Source of the DNA: a virus
DNA: 64,000 nucleotides
Strand: one strand, 5' to 3'
Virus record (IMG/VR): IMGVR_UViG_3300007643_000211
Coordinates: 3,099-67,098 of that record
The first letter of the stretch is position 1; each line of letters begins with the position of its first letter. Position numbers and translations under genes: made by a program. This document shows positions 1-44,342 of the stretch, in pieces. The notes under the pieces were generated by a model, which saw nothing but the letters and a program-made list of their open reading frames with translations, ran no database searches and was not told the origin of the DNA.

Positions 1-868
1 CGGCCCAGCGTTTGACAACGTCCGTGGTGTCATCAGTTGAGGCATCATCGACCACCAGGATCTCTTCGGGTCGTCGACTTTGATGAACGACACTTTTCAG
101 GCAATCGTCCAAATAGTGCGCGTAGTTATGGCACGGGATCACGACAGCGACTGACGTCGTCCTGGGAGGGATTCGTTGCGAGCTTGTTTTCGCACTCTTC
201 CGACACCAGAGTGCCACAGCGGTCGCTTCTTCGGTCAGCAGTTCGACATCCCGCCAACCACAGTCGCTCAGCATGCGGATCAGTTCAGATCGTGCCGGTC
301 GAAACGAGCGTGAGCGAATTCCTCCGATTTGGTCAGCTGGGTTTTCATTCACGAACCGCCCGGAGTAGCCGCCTTGCTCCACGTCGCCGTCATCTACCAC
401 ATAGGTCCAGAGCAGCATCTCTGGAGCAATCACTGCCAGTTGCCTCAGCAGTTTGGCTGGATCGGCCATGTGATACAGCAGACCGACATTATGAATCGCG
501 TCAAATTTTCCCAGCGACTCCAGATCACAGGATTCGAGATCCATCTCCAGGAACGTGGCGTTGTGAACATTTCGTTGCTGCTGAATAAATCGCGCCCGCT
601 GGAGATGCTCTCTGCGGACATCAACACCGACCACATGGCCGACACGCCGGGCCAATGAGAATGTGCGGCCGCCTTCCATACAGCCCAGTTCTAGGACGCG
701 ATCGGCATATGGCAGCCGTTCCCGAAACTGACGCAACAGCAGTTCGTTTTCGCTGACCTCGTAAGATCCGCCTATCGTTTTGCCGTTCAGCTGGAATCGA
801 GTCGTCCAAGGACCAAGACGATCGATTTCTCGCAGCAAATCTGAATCTTCAGTAACAAGTTTCGTCAT
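1..868 (-). CDS. Class I SAM-dependent methyltransferase fused to GT2 glycosyltransferase (partial, runs off left edge; missing from ORF track)
   Basis: Manual translation from ATG 868: RVLELGCMEGG (motif I), FDAIHNVGLLYH, then VAVVIPCHNY...EILVVDDASTDDT (GT2 N-terminus); ATGA overlap with sulfotransferase stop. Confidence 0.85.
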   Translation of the reverse strand, partial: MTKLVTEDSDLLREIDRLGPWTTRFQLNGKTIGGSYEVSENELLLRQFRERLPYADRVLELGCMEGGRTFSLARRVGHVVGVDVRREHLQRARFIQQQRNVHNATFLEMDLESCDLESLGKFDAIHNVGLLYHMADPAKLLRQLAVIAPEMLLWTYVVDDGDVEQGGYSGRFVNENPADQIGGIRSRSFRPARSELIRMLSDCGWRDVELLTEEATAVALWCRKSAKTSSQRIPPRTTSVAVVIPCHNYAHYLDDCLKSVVHQSRRPEEILVVDDASTDDTTDVVKRWA

Positions 869-1590
869 GGCATAAACCTGTAAGGGCTGTCGGCAACATC
901 GGACCAATTGGAGATGACATTCGAGAGTGGTCGCGTTTCATTCTTGGCGACCATCTGTTCAATCCTTCGCACAGTCACTCCGAGAAATCTCTGACACTCA
1001 GTAATTGCGTCATTCCAGGAATCGCAAAGGGATTCATACGTGATCGAGAGAATTGCATGGCTTTTCAGATCACTCAGTCGCCATTCGAACAGCGAGCGAT
1101 TCCATTCATGGAACCAACGGAGTGCCTCCGGGTCGACATAAACCTGAGGACGCTGGGCCAGTTTCTGCTGAGGTCCCCACATCCCGGTGACCTGAGCGAT
1201 TTTCCAGGATGCGAACTGGGCCAGAATGTCCAGTCGGCGCAAATGGATAATTCTGATCGTTGTGTCTGCGGAAAGGGCCTCCCAGGCAGGTTCCCAATCT
1301 CGCCAGTCCGCATACTTTCGATCCGGTTGAAACGCATGCACATTGAAGCCGACGGCTTTGGCTTTCGGGTGAGTCAAAGCCTTTCTCAAACGCTGGTTAC
1401 CTTCCTGAGGCAACTTGTGACCGTGAATGTGATTGAGAATCTCCCGATGCATGAAGATGTCGGAATGCTGACGCAGAGACGTGTTCAGCAAACTGGATCC
1501 CGTCCGCGGTTGGCAAAGAATAACAAATCTCGTTTGCTCCGATCTTGATGGCTGCTTCAATGCATTGGCGAGCGCGAACTGACTCATCAT
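865..1590 (-). CDS. Stf0-like sulfotransferase
   Basis: PAPS-binding motif FVILCQPRTGSSLL...HREIL; IIHLRRLDILAQFASW typical of the Stf0 family. Confidence 0.85.
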   Translation of the reverse strand: MMSQFALANALKQPSRSEQTRFVILCQPRTGSSLLNTSLRQHSDIFMHREILNHIHGHKLPQEGNQRLRKALTHPKAKAVGFNVHAFQPDRKYADWRDWEPAWEALSADTTIRIIHLRRLDILAQFASWKIAQVTGMWGPQQKLAQRPQVYVDPEALRWFHEWNRSLFEWRLSDLKSHAILSITYESLCDSWNDAITECQRFLGVTVRRIEQMVAKNETRPLSNVISNWSDVADSPYRFMP

Positions 1591-1595
1591 CAGCC

Positions 1596-2246
1596 CTATT
1601 CAATAAACTGAGCCGTTGGCCGTTGAGAATGCCCCGAGTCAGATTGTGTCCAGAAGAAGACAGTCAGCGTTTTCCGTGTTTCAGGTCCGGTGACTTCCGA
1701 GACCGCGTGATAAGAAACGTCGGATGGCTGAAACAAAACCAGTTGATTGAACTTGGGAGTAATTCCTTTTTCACAATGAGCGCCAGTCGCGCCATACAGT
1801 TCGAACTGGCCACCCCAGTCCTGCTCCCAATGACTATTGAGATAGAACACCGCGTTGCAGGCTCGTCGCCAACCGGTATTCGGGTGATGGTCACTGTCGA
1901 GATGTATTCCCAGCGAACTTCCAGGCGGCATCCCATGCAGTCCGGAAGCGTGGCAGTTCCAGTCTCCGAACGCGTCGCTGACTCCCATCAGTTCCGAAAT
2001 GGGCAGACAAAGCATTCTGCGAATCAATTCGCTGCAGGCGGGTGGAATCCGCAGCGGATCCTTGGTGGTCAGTTTGCCGTTGTCATAGCGGTGCCAGAAC
2101 GGCCAATGCTCGTCGGGCCATTCCGAATCGGCAGCGCGCACCAACTCAGGTGGCGCCCAGTTCTCGATGATCTCATGACGAAACGGTCGATCAAAAAACC
2201 AGTCGTCGAAATCAGTGCGTTCACTCATTGCGGTAATCGTGGACAT
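1596..2246 (-). CDS. 2OG-Fe(II) oxygenase (prolyl-hydroxylase-like)
   Basis: HLD...YLN..W..DWGGQFELY...SYHAV...RKTL: HxD..H iron triad and 2OG-binding Arg. Confidence 0.88.
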   Translation of the reverse strand: MSTITAMSERTDFDDWFFDRPFRHEIIENWAPPELVRAADSEWPDEHWPFWHRYDNGKLTTKDPLRIPPACSELIRRMLCLPISELMGVSDAFGDWNCHASGLHGMPPGSSLGIHLDSDHHPNTGWRRACNAVFYLNSHWEQDWGGQFELYGATGAHCEKGITPKFNQLVLFQPSDVSYHAVSEVTGPETRKTLTVFFWTQSDSGHSQRPTAQFIE

Positions 2247-2865
2247 ATTTGTAGCGCTCAGGATCAGGAATAGTTCCGCCGGCGACTGAGACGATCGATG
2301 GAACAGTCACCAGGGCATAACCCGCCGCCAGCATGCGACGGGAGAGATCAACATCACAAAACTCAAACGGAAACCGGTGGGAGAACCCGATTTTACGGAG
2401 TGTTTCGGTCCGTGCTGACCAGACGCCGCCCTGAACATGTATTTGCGGTTCAGTGATGTCTTCGGGAACTGCGGCGACTCGGTTGAACTCACAGGGATGA
2501 ACATGCCCTGCCAGGCCAACCTGCGGTTCAACCAGGGGAGCGATCAGATCCTTGATCCAGGTCGGATCGTTTTGCATTCCATGCGACGCACAGAGATAAA
2601 CGAATGCGTCACAGCTTGCCTGCTGAACCGCTGTCGTCAGACCACCACCGATGTAGATGTTGTATCCCTCATTCCAGAGGTAACGGACCCGTTGATCGCC
2701 GTTTGGGATTTGCTGGGCTTCTCTGGAGGGAGTTGGCCCATTGTCAATGATCAGCAGTTCCCCGGACAGTTTGCACGCCTCCAGAGCAGTGAGACTCTGC
2801 TGCAGGATTCGCCCGGTGATCGACCAGTTCGGTTCATGAATAACAGTGGCCAATGAGACGTTCAT
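2221..2865 (-). CDS. GT-A fold (GT2-like) glycosyltransferase
   Basis: LLIIDNG, GGVWSARTE, EFCDVDLSRRMLAAGY pattern. Confidence 0.75.
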   Translation of the reverse strand: MNVSLATVIHEPNWSITGRILQQSLTALEACKLSGELLIIDNGPTPSREAQQIPNGDQRVRYLWNEGYNIYIGGGLTTAVQQASCDAFVYLCASHGMQNDPTWIKDLIAPLVEPQVGLAGHVHPCEFNRVAAVPEDITEPQIHVQGGVWSARTETLRKIGFSHRFPFEFCDVDLSRRMLAAGYALVTVPSIVSVAGGTIPDPERYKYVHDYRNE

Positions 2866-5069
2866 TCATCCTCTATCTGTGGTGAGTACATGTCCGGGTT
2901 GTAAACATCTTCCAGACCGTCGTAGGCCACGCAGGCGGACTGTTCGAAATCGAACATTCGCCCCGGCCAGGCCTCGGCACCCCAACCCGTCGGTTGCCAG
3001 ACGTCCCGCCACTTCGGGGTTGCGAACACATCGGCGTTGCGGAACCAGAAAAACGTCCCTGCAAAATGCCAGGAGGAAGACGACTGGCCATCTGGATAGA
3101 TGCGATGATTCTCGTTGTGTTGTCGGCGATGCGTTCCGACGATCGCGGAATCGATCACCAGTTCATCGATCCGGGACCAGTCATCCAGGAGTTCGTGATA
3201 CATGGCATTTCGCCAGTAGCGGGAACCTTTGGGATCTCCAAGACAACAGACGTCTTTGCCGACTCCTTTTGCGTGCGCGTAGAACGTGGCCGTGTGCGGA
3301 TTGGGATCAGCAACAGACTCCAGCAACGGTAAAAATGTCGCATTCTCTCTCAGTTGCGCTGAGTTGGGGCGAGTGATGATTTCGACTTGGTGAATTCCAA
3401 ACGCAGCCTGAACCTGATCGGGATCAACCAGACCCTCACCAGTGGCAACGGCGATGACGCGTTTGCCGTTGAACAACTCGATCCGCTTGAGGAGTTGACG
3501 CACATTCCGCAGCCAGATGTCATTCGAGGCAAACGGCGTGATGTGATAGATCAGATTTCGCGTCGTGATCCCGCTTCTAGGTTGGGGAATGTTCTGCAGA
3601 TGCTGACATTCACATGTCCAGTCAACGAGTCGCTTCCAGTGATCGCCAATCGTGCGGAAGAACCGGACATCGAAACAGGACTCTCCGGGTGGCAGACAGA
3701 ATGGTTGCTGTTTCAGGGCTTCTGACCGCAGAACGATGCACCCGAATCCGCTGCCCCTGATCTCTTGTACTTGCGGTCGATCAACCAATGGTCGGCAGAG
3801 TTGATGGACTCCAGCAGATCCCTGTCGCTCACGAGACCAGACGAGATAACGCCCATCAAAGCGAGACCGATACGGTGCTGAGACTGATGCGACATTTTCA
3901 TCAAATGACTTCAGCAACCGCGAAAGCACATCAACGGGCGGAACAATGTCATCTTCCAGAATCCAGACTTGATCGGTTGTCAGTTCCTCGCGAAGGCGAC
4001 CATAGATCTGACACATCCGCTCATTCACTTTAATCAGTTGGTGATTGCGCGGCTGATCTCCCAGTCCTGGTCTGTCCGATGGAAGACAGATATGACGTAC
4101 GTCAGGAAAGTCGCACGTCGCAATCCACGTTCGGACGACTTGTGAAAACGACTCGTCGTTACTTGTATCGCACAGAATTAGTTTCAGCTGTTGGCGTGGC
4201 CAGGTCTGCTTTTCCAGAAAATTCGCCAGTTTTGGCCAGAGATGTTTTCTTCCGGACAATGGAATAAACAGCGTGACGGTTTCCTGTGCGAGATGTTGGC
4301 GCTGGAAATACGCCTCGATTCGGGTGCTGTTGAGATGAACGATTCCTGGATGTTTACGGAGTCGCCATCCCGATCGGGACAATTGACGCAGCAGGCCATC
4401 CAGTGGCCCGCCCGGATAATTCACGGCACTGAGGGCTTCTCGACTGACCAGAATCGTCGGTGCAGCGATTCCCGATCGGGACAATCCACTGGCGGAGAGT
4501 TCGTCTGGATAATTCGTTTTCGCTCCAGAACTGACCAGTTCATGGTCAGAATAGACTGCGCCGACTCCACCTTTATTGATCGTTTCTGAGGCGAATCTCA
4601 ACCAGTCCGGGCCGAGCAACGTGTTCGGTGAAACCAGACACACCAGGTTTTGCCCTGCATCGAGGGGGCATTTCGCAATGCGGACATTGCGTTGCCGATA
4701 TCTTTTGAGAACTTTACGCAGACGGCGATTCGTTGTGCCAGTGATTAGGATTTCCGCTGGTTGTTGACTGAGCAGATTGACCAGCAATGGTTCGATTGCC
4801 TCTACGCTGGCATTTTCGATGACGACTGACACTGGTGGAGTTGGATTCGCAACCGGTTCTGCGATAGGAACAGATTGAGCAGCCGGAAGTTCGGTCTCGT
4901 TGCTCAGCAATTGCAGAATATCTGGTTTCAGTTGCTGTAACTGCTGGCGTAATTCAGCAGTGAGCTTTCGACGAGGAGCGTAAGCAATGCTGTCTCCGCG
5001 TCGCTGGATCTGAATGCCACGCTGATCAAGTTCCTGGAGTAACTCGACAGCGTTCACACCGTTCCCCAT
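2862..5069 (-). CDS. Multi-domain glycosyltransferase with TubC-N-like N-terminal domain
   Basis: N-terminal LLQELDQRGIQI...LQQLKPDILQLL; central GT2-like unit (ILCDTS, WILEDDIVPP, GSGFGC); C-terminal YAHAKG...HFAGTFFW unit like viral glycosyltransferase domains. Confidence 0.7.
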   Translation of the reverse strand: MGNGVNAVELLQELDQRGIQIQRRGDSIAYAPRRKLTAELRQQLQQLKPDILQLLSNETELPAAQSVPIAEPVANPTPPVSVVIENASVEAIEPLLVNLLSQQPAEILITGTTNRRLRKVLKRYRQRNVRIAKCPLDAGQNLVCLVSPNTLLGPDWLRFASETINKGGVGAVYSDHELVSSGAKTNYPDELSASGLSRSGIAAPTILVSREALSAVNYPGGPLDGLLRQLSRSGWRLRKHPGIVHLNSTRIEAYFQRQHLAQETVTLFIPLSGRKHLWPKLANFLEKQTWPRQQLKLILCDTSNDESFSQVVRTWIATCDFPDVRHICLPSDRPGLGDQPRNHQLIKVNERMCQIYGRLREELTTDQVWILEDDIVPPVDVLSRLLKSFDENVASVSAPYRSRFDGRYLVWSRERQGSAGVHQLCRPLVDRPQVQEIRGSGFGCIVLRSEALKQQPFCLPPGESCFDVRFFRTIGDHWKRLVDWTCECQHLQNIPQPRSGITTRNLIYHITPFASNDIWLRNVRQLLKRIELFNGKRVIAVATGEGLVDPDQVQAAFGIHQVEIITRPNSAQLRENATFLPLLESVADPNPHTATFYAHAKGVGKDVCCLGDPKGSRYWRNAMYHELLDDWSRIDELVIDSAIVGTHRRQHNENHRIYPDGQSSSSWHFAGTFFWFRNADVFATPKWRDVWQPTGWGAEAWPGRMFDFEQSACVAYDGLEDVYNPDMYSPQIEDE

Positions 5070-5662
5070 TGGTTGCCATCGCTCAGGTTGCTGATCCGAA
5101 CCAGTCCCCAGCGGAGGTTGCCGTAATACCCGTAACCGTTTCCATAACCGCCGTAGCCACCAGCACCAGGCGGTTCTTTCCAGAGAATGAACGCGCTCCC
5201 GGCGTCATCAGTTTTCAGGGAATCGGTCTCATCCTGTTCGACGTCCGCCCATTCATGTTCCTCGTCCAGAACATTCAGCTGAATGGGCGTAATTCCGCTC
5301 AGCAGTCCGCGACCAATCATCCCGGCTCGAAGTGGCTCCTGCAGCACGATGAATCTACCATAGTGCTCGGCCTCGTCAGGTTTGACGCCGATGAATGCCA
5401 ACTGATTCTGAAAGCTGAGCAGATTCTCCGATGGCAGAATGATCGGGCGATCGATCCCCAGAACTTCGAAACGGCTGAGATCATCACCAGAGCCGTTTTT
5501 GACCAGAACAATTCCAGATTGGTGAAGTTCTGGCTGATGTTGAGTTCCTCGATTCTGCGTTCGTGCCCGAAAGTCTTTGGCGGCATCGATGAAGGTGTTG
5601 AATGTCTCCGCCGAGATGCGGAGCGGATCACCACGCTGAACTTTCTTGAACGGGTCTCCCAT
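5054..5662 (-). CDS. Putative tail-tip/minor tail protein
   Basis: Position downstream of tape measure, coupled to neighbours; no recognised motif. Confidence 0.45.
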   Translation of the reverse strand: MGDPFKKVQRGDPLRISAETFNTFIDAAKDFRARTQNRGTQHQPELHQSGIVLVKNGSGDDLSRFEVLGIDRPIILPSENLLSFQNQLAFIGVKPDEAEHYGRFIVLQEPLRAGMIGRGLLSGITPIQLNVLDEEHEWADVEQDETDSLKTDDAGSAFILWKEPPGAGGYGGYGNGYGYYGNLRWGLVRISNLSDGNQWGTV

Positions 5663-5665
5663 CTG

Positions 5666-6463
5666 TTAGACCCCGATTCCAAGTCCCGCGAAGTTCGTAT
5701 AGGGATAGACCTGCTCGACGTAGACCGAGAGCGGGCGTTTCACCAGCATCTTGGCATCGGGATCTTCGACATCGGCATACCGAATCCAGAGATAATCCCA
5801 GCCTCGTTTCACGATGCCCGTGATGTCGCCAACCTGCAGTCCCTGAACGTTGGGGCTGGCTGCAAACCGATACGAGATTTCCCAGTCGTCCTGGCCTCGC
5901 AGTGATCCGGCAGCGCCCAGGAACAGAACTTCTCCGGATGCAAACCCGCGAAATGGCCCGTTGTTGACGGTCCCTGTCAGGTAAAACAGAGTCGCTTTGT
6001 AAGCGCCTGTCACCAACGCGGCGTCGATATAATGCGTTTCGCTGAAGTTGTAGACCGGAACGGTGATGTCGACGCCTTCGACACCATCCTTGGTGACACC
6101 GATTCCACCACGGAAGTTGGGAGGAACAACTCCCGGTGCGGCCCAGACGCCGGTGGTCGCGAGCGACTGTGTGGCATGTTGCGTGCCGCCACCCGTATCG
6201 AACGAGTAAGTCGAATCGCCCGTTTGTGGAGGTTCAGTGCGTCCGTAACGGATCGAGCCTTCCCAGGCATCGTCGGCCAGTCTTTCGAGATGAGTCGATT
6301 GCCGAACCAGTCCTGCATAAATGTTCGGCGTTTGTGCGATCAGTTCGCTGTGCGCCTCGATGTCGTCGGTCGTGCCGAGAACGAGAAAACGCAGATCAAC
6401 CGAAGGCTGGTCCCCAGCCGACTGTTCGCGCGAATCCCACTTCTCGGTAACGATGACAGACAT
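5666..6463 (-). CDS. Putative distal tail protein
   Basis: Immediately downstream of tape measure gene; beta-rich composition. Confidence 0.5.
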   Translation of the reverse strand: MSVIVTEKWDSREQSAGDQPSVDLRFLVLGTTDDIEAHSELIAQTPNIYAGLVRQSTHLERLADDAWEGSIRYGRTEPPQTGDSTYSFDTGGGTQHATQSLATTGVWAAPGVVPPNFRGGIGVTKDGVEGVDITVPVYNFSETHYIDAALVTGAYKATLFYLTGTVNNGPFRGFASGEVLFLGAAGSLRGQDDWEISYRFAASPNVQGLQVGDITGIVKRGWDYLWIRYADVEDPDAKMLVKRPLSVYVEQVYPYTNFAGLGIGV

Positions 6464-6465
6464 GA

Positions 6466-8805
6466 TTATGTGAACTGCAAACCACCATGGTGCGCTTCAT
6501 CCAGCAGTCGCTTCGTGTTTCGGGCAGTCTCTTCCGTTGCATTGGCGGTCCGTTCTTGATGCGAGCCTGCTCCCATTCCACGGACTCCGAAAGCGTTGAA
6601 TGTTCCGCTAACGCTCACCTTGTCCGCTGCCTGTTGCAGTCCGGCACCGGCATCAGCCAGTTTCTCCTGGAGTTCATTCAATAGACCGGAAGGACTTGTT
6701 CCGGCAACATTGTCGTTCGTCTCTGCTGCCGACCGTTTCCGCGAGGCCTCTTCCAAAGCTGCCTGCCATTCACGACGTGCTTCCGCCAGTGCAGCATCAG
6801 AACTCTGCAACTCAGCTGCAAATTGCTGGGCGTGTCGTTGATGCTCGGCATCGCGCATCTGCTGGAGTTCGGAGAGTGTTCCTGAACGATCGCTGTCGAT
6901 CTGTGACAAACGGGAACGGCGCTGCTGCTCCCGTTCAAAGACCGCCTGATTCCGTTGGGCGTCGGCATTGTCGTTCTTGCCTGCAACCTCCTGGTTGATA
7001 CGAGTCACTTCCGCTTCGGCATCAATCTCCGAATCAAACAGTGATTTGAGCCTCACCCACGCTTTGCGGATGAACCCGACCGCTGTGTTCCAGGTTTTGT
7101 CAGACCGGTCGTGAACAGCGCCCAGGCATCGGCCAGGAAATCGACCGTCTCGGCCCAGCCTGCCTGCAACCCAGCCCAGGCATTCGTGGCGACTTCCGCA
7201 GCACCGTAAACCGCCTCGGTCCAGACCGCGACGAAGAATCGCTTCACTTCGACCCACAGCTGGTTGAGGGTATTGATTCCCTTTCTGCCATTCCATTTTT
7301 AGTGTGAGCCACAGAATCCGAGCGGCCAGACCGAGGTCTCCTGCCGCCAGGGCATCACCAATTCCACCGAACGCCTGAATGGCAGTTGATTTCAGAGCCT
7401 GAAACTGCTTCCCTAGCCAGTCGAGTGCCTGACTTCCGAGATCAGACGTGTTGATCAGATAAACCGCGATCGCGCCGATCCCGGCAAGAACCAGCCAAAT
7501 TGGTGACAACAAGGCTCCGAGCAGGGAAGCAACTGTACCAATCATCGTGGCCAAACCACCGAATCCGAAGGCGACGAGTTGAATCGTGCCACCCAGGCCG
7601 ATCAAAGCGACACCAGCAGCTAACAACCCGGCAATGATTCCAACTGTGGACAGCACAACCTGCTTGTTTTCGCCGACCCAGGTTCCCAATGCGGACAGAA
7701 ACGAGGTGACACCACGGACAGCCGACCGCAATTCCGTACCGAACGCTTCCCCGACGGCAATCGCCACACCTTCCAGTGCTGACATTAATATTGTCACGTC
7801 GCCTTTGAGCGTATCGAGTTGCGTCCCGGCGATATCGGAAGCTGTCCCGGTGGCATCTCCGAGTTTGGCGGTCGCGTCTCGCAGGCGTTCCGCACCTTGG
7901 GAAACCAGTTCCGCAGCACCTGCTGCTTGTCGGGCTGGAAAGATCGTGCCGAGCACTCGCAGTTTCTCACCGGAACCGACACCAGAAAGTGCACCTTCCA
8001 AGTCGGCCAGAATATCTGCCAGCGATCGGACGTTGCCGGCTTCATCGGTGATTCGGACTCCAAGTCGTTTCAATTCCGATTCGGCAGCTGCAGACGGTGA
8101 GGTCAGCGACAGCAGAATTCCCCGCAGCGTGGAACCCGCCATTTCCCCCTGAATGCCGGCATTCGAAAGCAACTGAATTGCGGCAGTGATTTCTTCGAGG
8201 GAGATTCCAGCAGACTTCGCCATCGGTCCGACGAACTTAAACGCATCACCCAGCATCGTCAGATCGGTATTGGCGGTCGTCATCGCTTTCGCCATGACGT
8301 CGACCGCTCCACCGAGCTTTTCGGCAGATAGGCCCATCCCGGCCATGATCTTGGCGGCGATGTCGGCAGCCTGGCCAATCTCGATTTGTCCAGCAGCGGC
8401 CAGATCCAGTGTCGGGCCAATCGCTGAGAGAATCTGGTCAACGTCGAATCCGGCCAGTGCGAACGAACTCATCGCTTCAGCCGCCTGACTGGCTGAGAAA
8501 ACTGTTGTCGCTCCGAGACGCTTGGCTTCCTTTTCCAGGCGAGTGAATTGGCTCTCGGTGGCTCCGGTCAACGCTTTGACACGGGCCATCTGCGATTCAA
8601 AGTTCGCGAAAGTCTTCGCAGACAGGGCAAAAGGAACGGCCGCAAGGCTCCCCACAGAGAGCAGCCTGCGACCGAACTGTTGAATCGACCTACCGAACGC
8701 CTTTAGTTTTGCCTGGGCTCGGCGCAGCCCGCGAACGAGTTTCGAGTCGTCGGCAAACAACTCGACATAAGCTCTGGCGGCCTTAATTGCACCGACAGCG
8801 GGCAC
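6466..8805 (-). CDS. Tail tape measure protein (TP901-type core), with an internal ~62-codon out-of-frame segment
   Basis: FESQMARVKALTGAT...LGATTVFSASQAAEAM...LDLAAAG; ANTDLTMLGDAFKFVGP; Ala/Leu-rich helical repeats. Confidence 0.92.
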   Translation of the reverse strand: MPAVGAIKAARAYVELFADDSKLVRGLRRAQAKLKAFGRSIQQFGRRLLSVGSLAAVPFALSAKTFANFESQMARVKALTGATESQFTRLEKEAKRLGATTVFSASQAAEAMSSFALAGFDVDQILSAIGPTLDLAAAGQIEIGQAADIAAKIMAGMGLSAEKLGGAVDVMAKAMTTANTDLTMLGDAFKFVGPMAKSAGISLEEITAAIQLLSNAGIQGEMAGSTLRGILLSLTSPSAAAESELKRLGVRITDEAGNVRSLADILADLEGALSGVGSGEKLRVLGTIFPARQAAGAAELVSQGAERLRDATAKLGDATGTASDIAGTQLDTLKGDVTILMSALEGVAIAVGEAFGTELRSAVRGVTSFLSALGTWVGENKQVVLSTVGIIAGLLAAGVALIGLGGTIQLVAFGFGGLATMIGTVASLLGALLSPIWLVLAGIGAIAVYLINTSDLGSQALDWLGKQFQALKSTAIQAFGGIGDALAAGDLGLAARILWLTLKMEWQKGNQYPQPAVGRSEAILRRGLDRGGLRCCGSRHECLGWVAGRLGRDGRFPGRCLGAVHDRSDKTWNTAVGFIRKAWVRLKSLFDSEIDAEAEVTRINQEVAGKNDNADAQRNQAVFEREQQRRSRLSQIDSDRSGTLSELQQMRDAEHQRHAQQFAAELQSSDAALAEARREWQAALEEASRKRSAAETNDNVAGTSPSGLLNELQEKLADAGAGLQQAADKVSVSGTFNAFGVRGMGAGSHQERTANATEETARNTKRLLDEAHHGGLQFT

Positions 8806-9291: not shown

Positions 9292-9599
9292 TCGATCACC
9301 GCTTCAATCAGCGCATGTACCGCTCCCTCCAGAGACGTTTCATCGAGCGATTCCCCGAACTGCTCGGGCGTCATCCCCTGAGTGTCCAACTGTGGCTGTA
9401 CCAGTGCGGTCAAGACATCGAACATGACGAACACATCTTCGACCACTTTGGTGAACGTTTCGCCTCGCGCGTCAATTAGCTTGGTGAGATCGACACCAGT
9501 CACGCCTTTGACTCGTTGCAACGTGGCGACATTGACTTCGATCGTCCAGGTTTTGCCTTTCGTGTCAGTGAAGGATTTCATGATCAGACCACCATCCAT
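9123..9599 (-). CDS. Tail assembly chaperone (G-like)
   Basis: Between tail tube and tape measure; carries slippery site at VIDFF. Confidence 0.75.
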   Translation of the reverse strand: MDGGLIMKSFTDTKGKTWTIEVNVATLQRVKGVTGVDLTKLIDARGETFTKVVEDVFVMFDVLTALVQPQLDTQGMTPEQFGESLDETSLEGAVHALIEAVIDFFQEGKRMLLKRAFTKVKTAAQRRQSTTIDKAMQAVESPEFDQAIENVLQSMSVN

Positions 9600-10018
9600 T
9601 CTGGCGGATTGGCACTGTAAGTCGGCTTGGCGGTCACGCTGACTGTGATTGCTTCTTCGAGTGGCTCATTCCGACTGAAGTTGGTGATCACCATCGCTGC
9701 CTTGAGTCCTTGAGTTCCGGTATCGACAACGTCACCATCCAGAATCGCGAATCCGATTGCGGTCCGATTGAAGAACGCCGTTCGAATTGCGGTGAATGCG
9801 GCATCCGCCGTATCCCAAACCATCTCGAACTCAATCGAGCCATCCTTGAGTGTCGCCAGCGTCGCTTTCCAGCCGTTGTTGCCACGCGTACTGGCGTCCG
9901 CTTCTCCCGCTTCGATGTTGAGCGTCAAATCCTTGACGTTCTTGATTTCCTCCATCGTGCCGGAGAAATCCGCCGCGTTGTGATACAGCTTGGCCTCAAG
10001 GCCGAGTCGAATTCCCAT
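9584..10018 (-). CDS. Tail tube (major tail) protein
   Basis: IKNVKDLTL..EAGEADASTR..NGWK..L.TLKDGSIEFEMVWD...ITNFSRNEPLEEAITVSVT pattern of TP901-like tail tube. Confidence 0.8.
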   Translation of the reverse strand: MGIRLGLEAKLYHNAADFSGTMEEIKNVKDLTLNIEAGEADASTRGNNGWKATLATLKDGSIEFEMVWDTADAAFTAIRTAFFNRTAIGFAILDGDVVDTGTQGLKAAMVITNFSRNEPLEEAITVSVTAKPTYSANPPEWMVV

Positions 10019-10864: not shown

Positions 10865-12250
10865 TTAAGAATTCGGTTTCAGCCCTTTGGAGGAGAGATA
10901 CTGATCGATCAACCCCTTGATCGTTTCCATGGTGCCGACCGAGCCAGGGTACTTTCGAGCCATTTCCGCTTCCGCCCAGGCAAAGGCTTCCGCGTATGTG
11001 TCCCGTTCATACGGAGCAAAGCGTGTCTCCGGCATGATTGCCTGCGGAAGCGGCGGAGAGTCGATCGTGATCGTGGGAGGTGGAGCCCGTCCTGATTGAT
11101 GCTTCCGACGTTTGCGAATCGTCCGCCAAAGGGCGATGCCTCCCAGGACCAGTCCACCTGCTCCTCCCGTCGCTCCTGTCACACCGAGCCAGGTGGCAAT
11201 GGTTGTCGCGGATTGGACAAGATTTGTCAGTCGTTCGATTCGCTCATCATTCTGGTCAGGTTCTGGCGGAGTCGTTGCAGGTCGCGACTCGGCTGATTCA
11301 GTTGACGCCTCAGTAACTGCTGGTGATTCACTGATTTCCGTGTTTGGTTCCGGAGTTGTGGAAACAGGTTGCCCGATCCCCAACTGCTGCAGCAATTTCT
11401 CTGGTGTCGAATATCCAGTGATCCGCAATTTGCCAATCATCAGAAATGTCGGGACGTTGGTGATCTTATATCGATCGGCCAGATCAGGATTGGTATCCAC
11501 ATCGACGATTTTGATCTGAAACGTCGCATTCAGTGCACTGTGAAACGCTGAATTCTCTGCATAATCCTGTTTGAATATCAGGCAGGGTCGACATGTCTTT
11601 GAACTGAATACATACAGTGTTGGCAGTTCATTTTCAGGTGTTGGTTCCTGTTGATTGCGTTTGGTGACCGCGGCATAGGCTTCTCGAACCGCGGCGGAAG
11701 AGATGAAGACGCTGGTCTGTTGATCGCCACTGTTGAGGAGACCACAAACCTGACCATGGCGATTCAGCAATGGTCCCCCACTCCAACCGGGAGCGGTCTG
11801 ACACGCGACGACATTGCCTTTGAATGGTCCGCCGGCATACGTGAAGTTGTTCCAGCGGAGCAGGCGGCCACTCGTCCAGCGAAGTTCTCGGAATTGTCCC
11901 TGAATTTGCGGATAGCCGTATGTCCAGACACATTCACCAAGCATTGGCGGTGTCATCGCAACTTCGAGATACGGATACCCATCCCCCTCGCAGTCATAGA
12001 CCACTGGGCCTTCGGTCTCGCTGCAGCTGTAAACTCGCTGGGCTGAAACCGATCGCTTCCGAAACTTGACGGTGACAGTCTCTGGGAGATCGCAATGCTT
12101 GGCAGTCATCACCAGGCCGGAAGCATCAACACAAACTCCGCTGCAGCCATCAACGAGCACGACGGCGTCGCGTGGTTCCGCAGCCTGTAGACCGCAACAG
12201 ATCAGCGCAATGAGAACAAAGCAGAGTCGATTCAACAGAATCTCCACCAT
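10865..12250 (-). CDS. Secreted trypsin-like serine protease with thioredoxin-like CxxC domain and C-terminal hydrophobic segment
   Basis: Signal-like N-terminus; TAKHC (His) and GWSGGPLL (Ser) motifs; CRPC followed by VDVDTNPDLA..YKITNVPTF. Confidence 0.85.
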   Translation of the reverse strand: MVEILLNRLCFVLIALICCGLQAAEPRDAVVLVDGCSGVCVDASGLVMTAKHCDLPETVTVKFRKRSVSAQRVYSCSETEGPVVYDCEGDGYPYLEVAMTPPMLGECVWTYGYPQIQGQFRELRWTSGRLLRWNNFTYAGGPFKGNVVACQTAPGWSGGPLLNRHGQVCGLLNSGDQQTSVFISSAAVREAYAAVTKRNQQEPTPENELPTLYVFSSKTCRPCLIFKQDYAENSAFHSALNATFQIKIVDVDTNPDLADRYKITNVPTFLMIGKLRITGYSTPEKLLQQLGIGQPVSTTPEPNTEISESPAVTEASTESAESRPATTPPEPDQNDERIERLTNLVQSATTIATWLGVTGATGGAGGLVLGGIALWRTIRKRRKHQSGRAPPPTITIDSPPLPQAIMPETRFAPYERDTYAEAFAWAEAEMARKYPGSVGTMETIKGLIDQYLSSKGLKPNS

Positions 12251-18864: not shown

Positions 18865-21195
18865 TCAAATTCGCCAGGAGTTTCGACGTTTTAGGTCCGA
18901 AAGCTTGATCCGACTTCGCTGCTTGATGGGGCCATTCACCTGATACTCCGACAACCTGACTCCCACGATGGAAGCAGCGACGGCATTGCCGACGAGGCAG
19001 TCGAGCCAGTGGTTGTCGGGCTGGCTCGGTCGTTGTTTCCACTCGTCAACGGTTCGACCGCGACCTTCGGTGCGGACACGGTATTCGGAAACGAGATGTT
19101 CAGCGAAGAGGCGATGAGCTTCGGGTTTCTGGCCGAACAGGGAGAGCGATCCCTTATCCGCCATCGCGACGGCCAGACGAGCGAACGTGAACGACTTCCA
19201 AAAATTGGTATCGTAGGTCACGTGCCGCATCGCCCGTTTTCCTGTCATCGCCGGGATGCGCCAGTTGAGACCGACCCGATCGCCAGGTCGGCGTTTGTAA
19301 TCGGAGAACGGGAGACTCGACGCCCCCACAAACCGCCCGTGGCTCGGCAGCAGCAGTGCTGCGTGTGGTGACTGTCGGCAAAACTGATAGACGACGTCGG
19401 TGGATGTTCCCCAGTTGGCATCGATCAGGCAGCGTTCGATTCGCAGCGAGGCCCCATCCTCGCGCTGCCATTCGCGCGACAGCTGCCATTCGGTCAGCGC
19501 CTGCAGCCCAGCATAGATGGCTCCTTCAAGTCCAGTTCCTTCCGCGACCGTCGACAGCGTATTCGTCACATCGCGGAGCGAAAAGTACGCACGCTGGGGA
19601 TCAGGCCAGGCTCCATATTCCAGCACGGCTCCACTGAATTCCTCGCCCCAGGCGCAGACGACGTAAAACAGCAGCTTCTGCTGCACGTCGATGAACATCG
19701 TCAGGTGCTGGCATCCGAGTGGAACCCGTCCCTTCGCCAGTCCGTTTAACTTGGCGGCGATCTGATCGGCGTTTAGCTCGTTCTCATCCACCTCGACTTC
19801 CGGCAGCGGCTCGTTCTGGTATTCAGCCCAGAATGCCGCCTCATCCTGCAGTTTGAGGTTCATCGCATGTTGGATCGCGGAAAGCTCGTCGTGGTTGTAT
19901 CGCTCTGGCCAGGCGATTCTTACACCGGCGTCCATCTGTTCCTGATGCTGTGCGTAAAACTCCGTCGCCGCTGCGCCACCATCTTCATTTCGTAAACCTT
20001 CCGCACGTAGTTCGGCATACCGATCCCACAGCTTGGTCTCGCTGGGGAACGCATAAACCATTTTCGTGCGTTCTCCCTGCCATTGAGGATGGTGGTCTCG
20101 GTTCAGAATTCGGTCGGCCATGTCCCCAGGACGAATCACCGTGCAGGGCATGATGCCGGAGATCTTGTGTCCCGGACCAGCTAGGCCGAGAACGGCACCC
20201 GCCAGGATGCTCTCCCGCTGCTGGCATTGGGAGACCGATCGGGCGGACTCATCTGTTTGCGGGTCATCGAGCACGACAAGGCTCGGCCGGACGCTTTTGC
20301 CATCCGGTCGTTTGAACTTCATTCCCCGAATGCGCCCCGTAATGCCGGCGACTTTGATGACTGCTCCGCTCGCCAGGGATCGGCCATCTTCGCGAACCAA
20401 TGTTCCGAGCGACTCGTTGTTTGACCAGACATTGGGTTCGAGAGTTGGGAGAACAATGTATTTCGCTGTCCAACCAATGTGGGTCCGCTCACCATGATAC
20501 AGCTGGCCGTTACAGCGGTTGGCAATCCCATCGAGTGACTGGATCGGATGGCAGACTTCAGGATAGTCGACCAGCAACAGTTCATTCGCATCGAGTTCGG
20601 TCTTGATCGATTCGAGCATGTCCATCGCATGCCCTTCGTCGGAACCAATCAGACACACGAATTCGCGATGACCGTTGAGCACCGCCCAGATACAGGCGCA
20701 TTCACAGATTGTCGTTTTTCCTGATCCCCTGGGCATTGCCATCGCAAACAGGCCACCCTGCAGCACTGCCTGCTCAATCTTCCGCAGCACTTTCAAATGG
20801 TCATCGGACCATGCCAGGTGGAAAGACTGCGGAAAATATGACTCGCAGAAGAACTGGAAATCTGTCGCTGCCTTCAGTCGTCGCGCAGGATCGGCGATTT
20901 CTGGTAGGTCGCCAATGTCACGACCGGCGGCTGAAAGTTCAGCGCTGTGACGGGCAGTTCGGTCTTTGTGTTGATCATACGATTCGGCGGGCTGTGAGGG
21001 CTTGGGATGATGTCGTTCCCATGCCAGCCACGCTGCGTAGCGCACAAGGTCAACATGTTTACCATCGCCGACGCGAAAACCGGCTCGTTGGCGGTCGCGG
21101 TACAGCTGCCGTTCGCTCGTTACTTCGCCCATAGGCGTTGAGTTCAGCAGCCGAACCAGTTCGCTGGGGCGCAATCGTTGGGGGTTAATCGCCAC
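18865..21195 (-). CDS. Terminase large subunit (gpA-like) with N-terminal wHTH extension
   Basis: Walker A MPRGSGKT, VVLDDPQT Walker B, nuclease FIDVQ...IDANWG...DNHWLDCLV. Confidence 0.9.
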   Translation of the reverse strand: MAINPQRLRPSELVRLLNSTPMGEVTSERQLYRDRQRAGFRVGDGKHVDLVRYAAWLAWERHHPKPSQPAESYDQHKDRTARHSAELSAAGRDIGDLPEIADPARRLKAATDFQFFCESYFPQSFHLAWSDDHLKVLRKIEQAVLQGGLFAMAMPRGSGKTTICECACIWAVLNGHREFVCLIGSDEGHAMDMLESIKTELDANELLLVDYPEVCHPIQSLDGIANRCNGQLYHGERTHIGWTAKYIVLPTLEPNVWSNNESLGTLVREDGRSLASGAVIKVAGITGRIRGMKFKRPDGKSVRPSLVVLDDPQTDESARSVSQCQQRESILAGAVLGLAGPGHKISGIMPCTVIRPGDMADRILNRDHHPQWQGERTKMVYAFPSETKLWDRYAELRAEGLRNEDGGAAATEFYAQHQEQMDAGVRIAWPERYNHDELSAIQHAMNLKLQDEAAFWAEYQNEPLPEVEVDENELNADQIAAKLNGLAKGRVPLGCQHLTMFIDVQQKLLFYVVCAWGEEFSGAVLEYGAWPDPQRAYFSLRDVTNTLSTVAEGTGLEGAIYAGLQALTEWQLSREWQREDGASLRIERCLIDANWGTSTDVVYQFCRQSPHAALLLPSHGRFVGASSLPFSDYKRRPGDRVGLNWRIPAMTGKRAMRHVTYDTNFWKSFTFARLAVAMADKGSLSLFGQKPEAHRLFAEHLVSEYRVRTEGRGRTVDEWKQRPSQPDNHWLDCLVGNAVAASIVGVRLSEYQVNGPIKQRSRIKLSDLKRRNSWRI

Positions 21196-42519: not shown

Positions 42520-42785
42520 AGCGGCCCATTGAATCATCAAGTTCCTCAGCAATGCATGGCGACATGACTGGAATGTTCTCGCCTGATGAGCAAGGACTGT
42601 GTGAGACGCCCGTACCGATACGTCGGCCACTGTCACTCGCCTGGATGTCGGATGAGTTGATCACCGAGACCCAGCGACTTTGGTCGGCCCGGTACGAGCG
42701 GGAGATCTTGGCAGAGGAAGCGGTTGAGATTCTTCAGAACGTGAAACTGTTTGCAGAGATGTTGATTGAAAGGAGCGAAACATGA
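42516..42785 (+). CDS. Small hypothetical protein upstream of recombinase (possible directionality factor)
   Basis: ATGA-coupled on both sides. Confidence 0.5.
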   Translation: MKRPIESSSSSAMHGDMTGMFSPDEQGLCETPVPIRRPLSLAWMSDELITETQRLWSARYEREILAEEAVEILQNVKLFAEMLIERSET

Positions 42786-44287: not shown

Positions 44288-44342
44288 ACCTGCGACCTCT
44301 TGTCCCCCAGACAAGCGCGCTACCAGGCTGCGCTACACCCCG
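44269..44342 (-). tRNA. tRNA-Pro(GGG), no encoded CCA
   Basis: CGGGGTGTAGCGCAGCCTGGTAGCGCGCTTGTCTGGGGGACAAGAGGTCGCAGGTTCAAATCCTGTCATCCCGA; full cloverleaf, C1-G72, A73. Confidence 0.96.

Follow-up and report, generated by a model that had tools for sequence, protein, structure and literature searches.

In chlorovirus PBCV-1, a soluble multi-domain enzyme of the A064R type combines two glycosyltransferase (GT) domains with a sugar methyltransferase, and a methylated glycan is placed on a virion protein with no use of the host's ER or periplasmic machinery. In mycobacteriophages, GTs and an O-methyltransferase encoded in the structural region modify capsid as well as tail tube, as described in PMC11600133 (citing Freeman et al. 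2023). O-glycosylation of tyrosine exists on bacterial S-layer proteins (PMC2943079). Here, we describe five enzyme genes behind the tail genes of a prophage, which are best explained as an integral late-operon glycosylation module of one clade of temperate siphovirus-like Planctomycetota phages.

Results

Layout of the cassette and its coupling to the tail genes

The window, the whole stretch of DNA analyzed, comprises 64,000 nucleotides (positions 3,099 to 67,098 of IMG/VR record IMGVR_UViG_3300007643_000211), and its relevant features are listed in Table 1. An earlier note had described five co-oriented ORFs continuing the tail operon, and the DNA and ORF table confirmed that all five lie on the minus strand downstream of the tape measure protein (TMP) gene with overlapping or near-touching stops and starts. 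The p202 and GT735 genes overlap by 16 nt, GT735 and p214 by 4 nt, and p214 and the oxygenase by 26 nt; a gap of 5 nt separates the oxygenase from the sulfotransferase, whose gene shares an ATGA overlap with the methyltransferase-GT gene (MT-GT-GT) when the start of the latter is set at the matching ATG of its relatives. Intergenic space for a separate promoter was absent in the cassette, and no break in base composition or GC content was observed across it. Together, the five products contain six GT-A domains and a single SAM methyltransferase domain, besides a sulfotransferase resembling NodH and a 2OG oxygenase resembling prolyl hydroxylases.

Table 1. Positions of the cassette genes and neighboring tail genes in the window
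Feature	Position	Strand	Basis or remark
MT-GT-GT fusion, N-terminal part	1-868	-	Methyltransf_31/25/11 and PF00535 (E 3e-30) on full protein
PAPS-type sulfotransferase, NodH-like, 241 aa	865-1590	-	PF13469, E 1.4e-8
2OG-Fe(II) oxygenase, 216 aa, prolyl-4-hydroxylase (P4H) type	1596-2246	-	PF13640, E 7e-19
p214, 214 aa, small divergent GT-A (GT2-like)	2221-2865	-	Homologues; motifs
GT735, 735 aa, first enzyme	2862-5069	-	TubC_N and three GT-A domains
GT735 tandem GT-A domains (three; residues ~80-250, 265-490, 503-715)	2862-4898	-	AlphaFold model
GT735 N-terminal TubC_N-type docking domain, alpha-beta-beta-alpha-alpha	4899-5069	-	PF18563, 35.2 bits (cut-off 26)
p202, truncated virion fiber base (beta-tulip domain), candidate glycan acceptor	5054-5662	-	Model and homologues
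p202 Gly-Tyr-rich loop, residues ~163-184 (22 aa, of which 5 Tyr and 9 Gly)	5111-5176	-	Predicted disordered, pLDDT ~41
p265, 265-aa tail-end protein, unknown fold	5666-6463	-	Always between TMP and fiber gene
TMP, 779 aa, last canonical tail gene	6466-8805	-	PF10145, E 8e-48

TMP matched PHROG tape-measure families with E values down to 1e-101. Copies of p265 at 48-92% identity were found in more than 80 IMG/VR loci, each time with a p202 homologue following them; p265 had no match in Pfam, PHROG, or PDB, and its Atlas neighbors are viral.

At least 15 Planctomycetota loci show the order TMP, p265, p202, and cassette, and the order with the TubC_N-GT and further enzymes behind p202 is kept at GT735 identities of 35-89% (L004-L007, L009, L010, L014, L066, L089-L099, and L101). 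The downstream flanks differ: the window's record has an IS5 element and a bacterial-looking ORF, L004 has Amidase_3 with a 4430-aa protein, L006 has an SNF2/DUF1156 pair, and in L005 there are convergent GT genes. This recurrence beside unrelated flanks agrees with the earlier note, which had coupled these genes to the phage tail genes, and it supports the assignment of the cassette to the prophage's late structural operon and not to a host locus. The region left of the window, proposed as a place to look for more GTs and attL, contained the IS5-type element and the bacterial-looking ORF, with no further GTs and no recognizable attL. The cassette occupies the very end of the prophage arm, the classic position of lysogenic-conversion cargo, and this point speaks against the reading that we prefer.

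Domain content and solubility of the cassette enzymes

The first enzyme, GT735, proved to be a multi-domain GT as described earlier, with a TubC_N docking domain and, in the AlphaFold model (pLDDT 77), three GT-A domains. The docking domain, present in a single copy in the whole record, weakly matched that of AerJ among PDB sequences (E 0.012). In Foldseek, the model matched chondroitin polymerase K4CP (E 1e-16) as well as LH3, COLGALT1, and mimivirus R699 (E 1e-15 to 1e-13). Residues E372-D373-D374 and D301 were invariant in 36 homologues. The 214-aa product, previously called a GT2, has no Pfam match itself and was accepted as a divergent GT-A through its relatives at 51-70% identity, which carry PF00535 and/or are named GT2. 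Its alignment with domain 1 of the GT735 profile was weak (hhalign probability, 9.7%), and the motifs IxDN and CDVDLSRR were conserved.

The assignment of the 2OG-Fe(II) oxygenase also held. Its matches among PDB sequences were a putative hydroxylase (9blq; E 3e-11), OGFOD1, Pseudomonas PPHD, and PHD/EGLN enzymes, and the HxD...H and RK residues were invariant in nine homologues. The fourth enzyme is a sulfotransferase, but the Stf0 model suggested earlier (PF09037) scored 13.3 bits, below its cut-off of 22. Among solved structures, the LPS sulfotransferase NodH came nearest (E 2e-7), and the enzyme is a carbohydrate (NodH-like) sulfotransferase; its P-loop, QPRTGSSLL, and its 3'-phosphate motif were invariant in six homologues. 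The methyltransferase-GT2 fusion of the earlier note is present and contains a second GT-A domain after the GT2, similar to domain 2 of GT735. The full gene (G000:C1:1846-3966; ~706 aa from its ATG) runs 2253 nt beyond the left edge of the window, and its product shares 75% identity with the L004 orthologue over 687 aa, beginning at the ATG at window position 868.

No membrane segments (no 19-residue window above KD 1.7) or signal peptides were found in the cassette enzymes, and flippase, polymerase, and priming transferase genes were absent from the cassette. These features fit an acceptor located in the cytoplasm, for example a virion protein during assembly. Solubility alone is no proof of a protein acceptor, because cytoplasmic GT2 enzymes also use lipid-linked sugars on the inner side of the membrane.

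TubC_N was located on the first enzyme in all three cassette architectures scanned (also in the variant cassettes L010 and L014), and the catalytic modules behind it differed, with first enzymes ranging from 544 to 1245 aa and changing in domains. In sister phages, the place of the sulfotransferase is taken by a pyruvyl-transferase-like or a methyltransferase gene, indicating that sulfation is no constant of the system. Relatives of the MT-GT protein at 40-62% identity also occur without tail-gene matches in the flanks fetched (up to 10 kb). GT genes come after long fibers in other branches, too: in the sister phage L017, a GT2-MT fusion directly follows a fiber with true collagen repeats, and in L059 a GT32-like gene lies two genes on from a Ser-rich fiber in the same tight operon.

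The gene upstream of the cassette encodes a truncated fiber base

The earlier statement that no tail fiber gene is visible was half right, since the 202-aa gene directly upstream of GT735 encodes a fiber base that is truncated. The p202 model (pLDDT 80.7) aligned in VIA-align with the HFTV1 decoration protein (Z 11.7) and the base of the phi29 head fiber gp8.5 (Z 7.6-7.8), and its BFVD matches were fiber, collagen-repeat, and Mtd N-terminal domain proteins. Because the fold best matches capsid decoration proteins, p202 may belong to a head fiber rather than a tail fiber.

Homologues from loci without the cassette, where the gene was complete, were 259-936 aa long in 44 of 44 tree rows and had hypervariable tails, one from the sister group with collagen repeats. 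In all 13 cassette rows, p202 was only 199-211 aa long, ending 13-14 residues past the base domain in the clade (13 residues here). The C-terminus ...QWGxV was found only together with the cassette. Every cassette-bearing locus had a Gly-Tyr loop of 18-31 aa with 4-7 Tyr, and the equivalent loop in long-fiber relatives has 7-10 aa and no Tyr. The association of short fiber and cassette corresponds to one change on the p265 tree and hence to one evolutionary event, not replicated co-evolution. The Gly-Tyr fiber stub and the docking domain, the most informative features of the locus, had been missed in the earlier note. That note's interpretation stood in part: the cassette does belong with the prophage's structural genes, but its proposal of hydroxylated residues as the acceptor was not specifically supported. 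The presence of proline in the loop is independent of the oxygenase gene, as L004 and L006 have the oxygenase and no Pro in the loop, and L014 has Pro-Gly in the loop and no oxygenase.

Discussion

We propose, as a reading with about an even chance of being right, that soluble cytoplasmic enzymes expressed late decorate a virion protein, most likely the p202 stub, with a methylated and sulfated oligosaccharide. The cassette genes would share transcription and translational coupling with the tail genes, and their products would draw on host nucleotide sugars, SAM, PAPS, and 2-oxoglutarate in the cytoplasm. GT735 would be brought to its protein acceptor by the N-terminal docking domain. The likeliest acceptor is p202, encoded just upstream, presumably a trimeric virion fiber base that has lost its distal part and instead bears an exposed Gly-Tyr-rich loop and the new C-terminal peptide. 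The six GT-A domains would lengthen an oligosaccharide plausibly O-linked to Tyr, which the methyltransferase and the NodH-like sulfotransferase would cap, and the P4H-like oxygenase would hydroxylate some protein residue. Such a glycan could stand in for the lost fiber as an adhesin or shield, and swaps of enzyme modules could diversify it, like swaps of receptor-binding domains in ordinary fibers. The Gly-Tyr loop itself could also be a glycan-free binding surface. Our results suggest, without proving, that an enzyme-built glycan may have replaced the job of a missing fiber in this group of Planctomycete prophages.

As the last block of the prophage arm, next to an IS element and what is probably a host gene, the cassette could alternatively be lysogenic-conversion cargo that remodels a host surface polysaccharide or glycoprotein with sugars, methyl, and sulfate, blocking superinfection or altering host ecology, its place behind the tail genes being incidental. 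Relatives without the cassette carry integrases and defense genes at the same position, a cargo hotspot; sets of GT2, methyltransferase, sulfotransferase, and pyruvyl-transferase genes are typical of polysaccharide loci; and MT-GT homologues are found away from tail genes. We nevertheless consider this unlikely, because the cassette has neither intergenic space nor a separate orientation and overlaps the fiber gene, lacks any membrane-embedded component (Gtr-type proteins, flippase, polymerase, and priming transferase), is strictly tied to the truncated Gly-Tyr fiber, carries a protein-docking domain, and stays together with the tail genes as one conserved unit over GT735 identities of 35-89%. 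It is unlikely, too, that the glycan is carried by other structural proteins (major capsid protein, cement protein, tail tube, or p265) and that the truncation of p202 is unrelated. Capsid and tail tube are both modified in the mycobacteriophages (PMC11600133), the decoration-like fold of p202 makes a capsid-wide coat conceivable, and p202 offers no obvious site for the oxygenase. Against this, no extension rich in Ser/Thr or otherwise of low complexity was seen in the tail tube or in the small head and neck proteins inspected, the major capsid protein is unbiased in composition, and the only clade-specific changes found among proteins other than capsid and tube are in p202.

The docking domain would have another meaning if GT735 bound by it to the p202 stub at its C-terminal peptide and rode on the particle, either as the distal fiber, with lectin-like receptor binding, or as an enzyme modifying host glycans on contact. 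Its gene lies where a distal fiber part would be encoded, the C-terminal peptide of p202 is conserved and clade specific, and TubC_N-type domains bind short C-terminal peptides of their partners (Pfam PF18563 description; AerJ match). However, an extracellular GT would be without its nucleotide-sugar donor, the other four enzymes would have no structural rationale, the catalytic motifs of GT735 are under strong conservation, and the first enzyme varies in length and domains unlike a fiber shaft; we judge a virion-borne GT735 quite improbable. Hypermodification of phage DNA bases by the oxygenase and GTs, as in TET/JBP plus glycosyltransferase systems, is very improbable. A 2OG oxygenase beside GTs superficially resembles phage TET-GT modules, and the oxygenase weakly matches phrog_61, annotated as 2OG-Fe(II) oxygenase; but instead of TET/JBP it is of the P4H/PHD type, with protein prolyl hydroxylases among its PDB matches. 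The cassette sits in the late tail operon and outside the replication module, the carbohydrate-type sulfotransferase argues against a DNA target, and the docking domain and fiber link would have no DNA rationale.

Compared with known systems, the proposed glycosylation of a virion protein by this cassette shares features with several. Gtr-type modules (GtrABC of P22, SfV, and similar phages) likewise place a GT2 near a prophage end, and the MT-GT protein weakly matches the 'GtrB-like O-antigen conversion' family phrog_841 (E 2e-5). Gtr systems, however, consist of membrane proteins whose expression during lysogeny is driven by a promoter of their own beside int/att, whereas the cassette proteins are all soluble, have no GtrA- or GtrC-like partner, and are encoded by genes fused to the late operon. 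The collagen hydroxylysine enzymes (LH3/PLOD, COLGALT1 = GLT25D1, and mimivirus R699/L230), tandem GT-A proteins among the best structural matches of GT735, also bring a 2OG oxygenase and GTs to a fibrous protein; the TM-scores are low (~0.25), and these matches may reflect the tandem GT-A layout only. Unlike in those enzymes, the oxygenase of the cassette stands alone as a P4H/PHD-type protein and is not a lysyl hydroxylase domain, and the p202 stub of the window lacks G-X-Y repeats. The beta-hairpin (TubC_N-type) docking domains of NRPS/PKS assembly lines and trans-acting tailoring enzymes, such as TubC and AerJ, are N-terminal alpha-beta-beta-alpha-alpha units of ~55 aa before a catalytic protein, as in GT735, and the known domain recruits its enzyme to the short C-terminal peptide of an upstream partner. 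The upstream p202 ends in a conserved clade-specific peptide and is a candidate partner only; the context here is a phage tail operon with GTs, not a natural-product assembly line.

The PBCV-1 A064R-type enzyme, alike by description, belongs to a giant virus of eukaryotes whose capsid glycans are N-linked, and, compared with the cassette, that system is not known to have a docking domain, a sulfotransferase, or a fiber truncation.

The mycobacteriophages of cluster O (such as Corndog) and cluster F (such as Che8; Freeman et al. 2023, as cited in PMC11600133) are temperate siphoviruses whose structural region likewise encodes tandem GTs and an O-methyltransferase; their enzymes are soluble and act on virion proteins that assemble in the cytoplasm, with glycosylation measured there and inferred here. 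The modifications in those phages are at capsid or tube termini, whereas the present locus comes from phages of Planctomycetota and has a triple GT-A enzyme led by a docking domain, a sulfotransferase, a P4H-like oxygenase, and a Gly-Tyr loop as the proposed acceptor, with the cassette translationally coupled to a truncated fiber gene.

Results

Prophage A lies on the minus strand of the 71,946-bp source record (window, bases 3099-67098). Its regulatory and replication genes sit near 42 kb, from where it continues to the far left of the window. An earlier note had described five co-oriented genes behind its tail genes as a glycan-building operon, and the gene order read from the DNA bore this observation out. 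Seven same-strand genes follow the tape measure protein (TMP) gene with almost no intergenic space, namely p265, p202, and a near-gapless cassette of five enzyme genes that has 16 nt in common with the last structural gene and lies on the strand of the TMP and tail tube genes. The cassette was also scanned for promoters and terminators; sigma-70-like sites numbered 0 against 4 expected and terminator-like sites were at chance level, in a scan that is uninformative for Planctomycetes. Among sequencing runs, the matches listed were DNA metagenome rows of small share, with no RNA holder. Separately, a trypsin-like protease with a signal peptide, fused to a thioredoxin-like domain, is encoded midway through the structural operon and is kept at 52-59% identity in the closer relatives L005, L006, L008, L009, L089, and L090.

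Features of prophage A, the cassette and the left flank (window coordinates unless prefixed; L002 is the flank just left of the window in record G000:C1)
Feature	Position	Strand	Remarks
Leftmost ORF of the record	L002:3-842	+	bacterial-looking
IS5-family element	L002:941-1874		directly downstream of MT-GT
Methyltransferase-GT fusion (MT-GT)	from 868, past window edge	-	about 706 aa
Sulfotransferase	865-1590	-	241 aa
2OG-Fe(II) oxygenase	1596-2246	-	216 aa
p214	2221-2865	-	214 aa
GT735	2862-5069	-	735 aa
p202	5054-5662	-	202 aa
p265	5666-6463	-	265 aa
TMP	6466-8805	-	prophage A
Tail tube	9584-10018	-	prophage A
Protease-thioredoxin fusion	10865-12250	-	mid structural operon
Portal, protease/capsid fusion, cement protein, head-tail joining protein		-	prophage A, between terminase and tail tube
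Terminase	18865-21195	-	prophage A
Serine recombinase	42782-44287	+	opposite end of prophage A from cassette
tRNA-Pro	44268-44342		adjoins serine recombinase

The arrangement of structural operon and cassette was kept in at least 15 loci. In every context with enough sequence, the order was TMP, p265, p202, a GT with a TubC_N docking domain, and further enzymes. The closest 38 matches to GT735 showed 57-89% identity, with weaker, partial ones below, and wherever a source was named it was a Planctomycetota assembly; members of the clade have relatives in Thalassoglobus- and Planctomycetaceae-type genomes. What lies downstream of the last enzyme varied: L004 has an Amidase_3 gene and a giant protein, L005 has convergent GT genes, L006 has an SNF2/DUF1156 pair, and this record has an IS element. 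Because the gene order is conserved, the flanks differ each time, and the GC content is unbroken across the cassette, a host locus outside the prophage, which the earlier note had named among the outcomes that would overturn its reading, is unlikely, with the att sites unmapped. These results indicate that the cassette is very probably a phage late-operon module. A search for att sites did not locate the ends of the prophage: the tRNA-Pro region had no second copy anywhere in the 71.9-kb record, and serine recombinases, one of which adjoins this tRNA, are not known to leave long repeats behind.

On the left flank, the IS5-family element carries 19-nt inverted repeats (79% complementary) and a DUF4096 ORF and a DDE ORF that are probably joined by a frameshift. 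It is inserted at the extreme 3' end of the MT-GT gene, where its right inverted repeat replaces just the last few codons. No further GTs were found between the cassette and the end of the record. In Atlas, the leftmost ORF was weakly linked (0.89) to LTXXQ/CpxP-like periplasmic proteins; it may belong to the host, in which case the prophage would end between this ORF and the MT-GT gene.

Six GT-A domains are spread over the five proteins, which also include a single methyltransferase domain, a single sulfotransferase, and a single oxygenase. In a sequence check, no membrane-grade hydrophobic segments or signal peptides were found in any of them, and all are thus predicted to be soluble. The GT735 model (pLDDT 77) consists of a TubC_N docking domain and three GT-A domains. 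Its top structural matches were tandem GT-A enzymes, namely chondroitin polymerase K4CP (Foldseek E 1e-16), LH3, COLGALT1, and mimivirus R699, all with low TM-scores. An E372-D373-D374 motif in the middle domain was invariant in 36 homologues. The C-terminal tail of GT735 (residues about 715-735; window 2862-2925, minus strand) is predicted to be disordered (pLDDT 24-31) and is still conserved among homologues, with the consensus YNPD.Y.PQI.DE; one possible role is that of a short linear motif recognized by some other partner. Direct searches of Pfam, NCBIfam, PHROG, and PDB sequences returned no matches for p214, p202, or p265. We assigned p214 as a GT-A protein because its relatives at 51-70% identity bear PF00535; an hhalign comparison of the p214 and GT735 families was weak (9.7% probability). 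MT-GT, which is complete when the left flank is included, combines a class I methyltransferase, a GT2 domain matching PF00535 (E 3e-30), and a second GT-A domain.

The oxygenase matched PF13640 (E 7e-19; prolyl-4-hydroxylase type), and HLD, the distal H and RK, representing the HxD...H iron triad and the basic 2OG-binding residue, were invariant among homologues. Its nearest solved relatives are protein prolyl hydroxylases, with PDB matches to OGFOD1, PPHD, and PHD enzymes. The sulfotransferase matched PF13469 (Sulfotransfer_3; 35.8 bits, cut-off 27), and both its P-loop (QPRTGSSLL) and its 3'-phosphate motif (IHLxR...SWKIA) were invariant in 6 homologues. Its earlier description as Stf0-like holds only as a broad resemblance, PF09037 scoring 13.3 bits (E 0.06) against a cut-off of 22. 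The only solved relative that we found was NodH, a carbohydrate sulfotransferase (E 2e-7). A tyrosine-protein sulfotransferase, as the pairing with a Tyr-rich loop in p202 might suggest, was set aside on this ground.

Behind TMP, the p265-p202 pair was present in >80 IMG/VR loci. In the p202 model (pLDDT 80.7), a helix at the N-terminus is combined with a beta-tulip domain, and this base resembled the HFTV1 capsid decoration protein (Z 11.7, rmsd 2.7 over 110 residues) and the base of the phi29 head fibre gp8.5 (Z 7.6-7.8). In BFVD, the model matched segments of long viral proteins that resemble fibres, among them proteins with collagen repeats or an Mtd N-terminal domain, side-tail-fibre proteins, and auto-chaperone proteins. 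In the 44 rows of the p265 tree that lack the cassette (complete genes only), the p202 homologue was 259-936 aa long; behind the shared base it has a hypervariable extension, in many cases including Ser- or Pro-rich linkers. By contrast, it was 199-211 aa in all 13 cassette rows, ending 13-14 residues past the last base strand with ...QWGxV, an ending seen nowhere else in the family. The loop before the last strand was 18-31 residues long and contained 4-7 Tyr and 7-14 Gly in the cassette clade, compared with 7-10 residues and no Tyr in relatives without the cassette. In the p202 model, this Gly-Tyr loop is predicted to be disordered. Fold and length together mark p202 as a truncated fibre of which only the base is left in the window. 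The cassette and the short fibre were perfectly associated, and since this combined state requires a single change on the p265 tree, where the cassette rows form one group (SH-aLRT 90) within the long-fibre phages, it represents one event. As for the location of p202, its gene position suggests the tail tip and its fold relatives suggest the capsid.

Some further features of these phages were recorded. Throughout the family (window 5666-8805; >80 loci), there seem to be just two genes after TMP, p265 and a p202-family fibre, and profile searches recognized no Dit, Tal, or hub protein. One relative has a ceramidase-like gene (neutral/alkaline, PF04734) between p265 and the fibre stub (L006:7758-9245). 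Very long low-complexity linkers of Ser, Pro-Ser or poly-Pro type occur in many long fibres (L015, L018-L020, L022, L049, L059, and L071); they look mucin-like and would be plausible O-glycosylation substrates in their own right.

TubC_N (PF18563) was detected at the N-terminus of GT735 with 35.2 bits (cut-off 26), and with 40 bits in a six-frame search in which it was the sole copy in the record. Its secondary structure in the model is alpha-beta-beta-alpha-alpha (H7-16, E20-24, E27-31, H38-46, and H48-56). Five cassette architectures were found within the clade. The first enzyme behind the stub began with TubC_N in (a), (b), (d), and (e), which are all the architectures scanned for the first enzyme. 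Across the cassettes scanned, the docking domain is constant and the chemistry is variable.

Cassette architectures within the clade
Architecture	Loci	Content
(a)	this window; L004, L006, L089, L090	the five genes of this window
(b)	L005	sulfotransferase replaced by a pyruvyl-transferase-like gene (weak precomputed Pfam match) plus an extra ORF
(c)	L009, L092	Methyltransf_24 gene in the sulfotransferase slot, then GT4
(d)	L010; L101 by tblastn pattern	544-aa TubC_N-GT2 and one methyltransferase; in L010, a GmrSD gene behind the methyltransferase
(e)	L014	1245-aa TubC_N protein combining GT2 domains with a methyltransferase and a TOD1/MUCI70-like domain; three further GT/MT genes behind it

In natural-product assembly lines, TubC_N recruits a protein to the short C-terminal peptide of its upstream partner (Pfam PF18563 description). 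By analogy, TubC_N may recruit the priming transferase to the new C-terminal peptide of the stub. Its match to the docking domain of AerJ, a tailoring enzyme, was weak (E 0.012), and a complex prediction of p202 with TubC_N scored 0.28, below the mark of 0.32, and was given no weight in either direction.

Elsewhere in the family, the genes behind long fibres were mostly integrases and defence genes, which mark this position as a cargo hotspot where the structural module ends. In the sister phage L017 (11927-15951), a 936-aa fibre on a p202-type base carries Cys/Gly-rich repeats and true collagen G-X-Y repeats, and a GT2-methyltransferase fusion lies directly behind it; the fusion was assigned from large, mostly viral Atlas clusters (score 0.99) with weak sequence support. 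In L059, a GT32-like gene is located two genes past a Ser-rich fibre in a tight operon, and an aggregate scan of fibre-downstream genes gave one match each to GT8, GT25, and a sulfotransferase. Fibre-adjacent glycosylation genes therefore occur outside the clade as well, providing modest support for the fibre as the substrate.

Discussion

The best-supported reading is that of a late, cytoplasmic, virion-directed module whose most likely acceptor would be the Gly-Tyr loop of p202. Late-expressed cytoplasmic enzymes would direct glycosylation to the virion, and their product would take the place of the distal part that the fibre has lost. Tyr-linked glycans occur on bacterial S-layer proteins (PMC2943079). 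The earlier note had proposed a sulfated, methylated glycan on the virion, or remodelling of the host surface. Its interpretation is partly supported, in that the cassette is very probably a phage late-operon module; the modification itself is putative. We lean slightly towards the cassette modifying a virion protein, and the naming of p202 as that protein is more tentative. The main rival is lysogenic conversion, in which the same enzymes would alter the host surface. The location of the cassette at the end of the prophage favours such a role, but its translational coupling, its lack of membrane components, and its tie to the fibre all speak against it. As a general rule, prolyl hydroxylation of a Pro-Pro-Gly where the loop begins was rejected, as L004 and L006 have the oxygenase but no Pro there; loop proline did not track with the oxygenase gene.

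A more far-reaching proposal, which we consider improbable as a whole, is that a methylated and sulfated (or pyruvylated) oligosaccharide built by these enzymes on the Tyr-rich stub replaces the protein receptor-binding part of the fibre. The glycan would then be the host-recognition ligand, perhaps captured by the polysaccharide-binding and uptake apparatus of Planctomycetes as a "Trojan sugar," with host range retuned by swapping transferase modules in place of receptor-binding domains and the priming transferase targeted to the stub by the docking domain. If true, this would be a new way of making the outermost contact surface of a phage, from a short stub and a modular enzyme set. Variation in that set, seen here as a sulfotransferase, a pyruvyl-transferase-like gene, and extra methyltransferases and GTs, would do the job that shuffling of receptor-binding domains does elsewhere. 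The targeting of a protein glycosyltransferase would likewise be a novel task for an NRPS/PKS-type docking domain. Even if the product were a shielding glycan or served host-surface conversion, this would be a conserved, apparently undescribed module in prophages of a polysaccharide-specialised and ecologically important phylum. To our knowledge, phage-encoded virion glycosylation has been documented experimentally in very few phages, and we found no description of it for phages of Planctomycetota.

With respect to known systems, the cassette does not correspond to Gtr O-antigen conversion, which comprises a membrane-embedded GtrA flippase, GtrB, and a serotype-specific GtrC; the sole Gtr resemblance was a weak GtrB-like match to the GT2 core. 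Nor does it correspond to the collagen Hyl/Hyp systems (LH3, COLGALT1, and mimivirus L230/R699), since a G-X-Y acceptor was not found in the window structural proteins inspected, collagen repeats being present only in the L017 fibre, and the TM-score of GT735 was low. The affiliation of p202 with fibres on a beta-tulip, decoration-type base is supported by the base fold and by the long variable extensions in the 44 relatives. A closer parallel for the proposed module is the phage-encoded virion glycosylation of mycobacteriophages (PMC11600133, citing Freeman et al. 2023). As in that system, the GT genes are contiguous with the structural operon. In the mycobacteriophage type, capsid and tail tube are the acceptors; the candidate acceptor here is the Gly-Tyr loop on the fibre base, and no low-complexity extension was found on the tail tube or the inspected small head and neck proteins, and the major capsid protein showed no compositional bias. 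Judged from its predicted proteins, a virion glycosylation system in which a sulfotransferase and an oxygenase accompany a docking-domain-led enzyme behind a truncated Tyr-rich fibre would be unusual.
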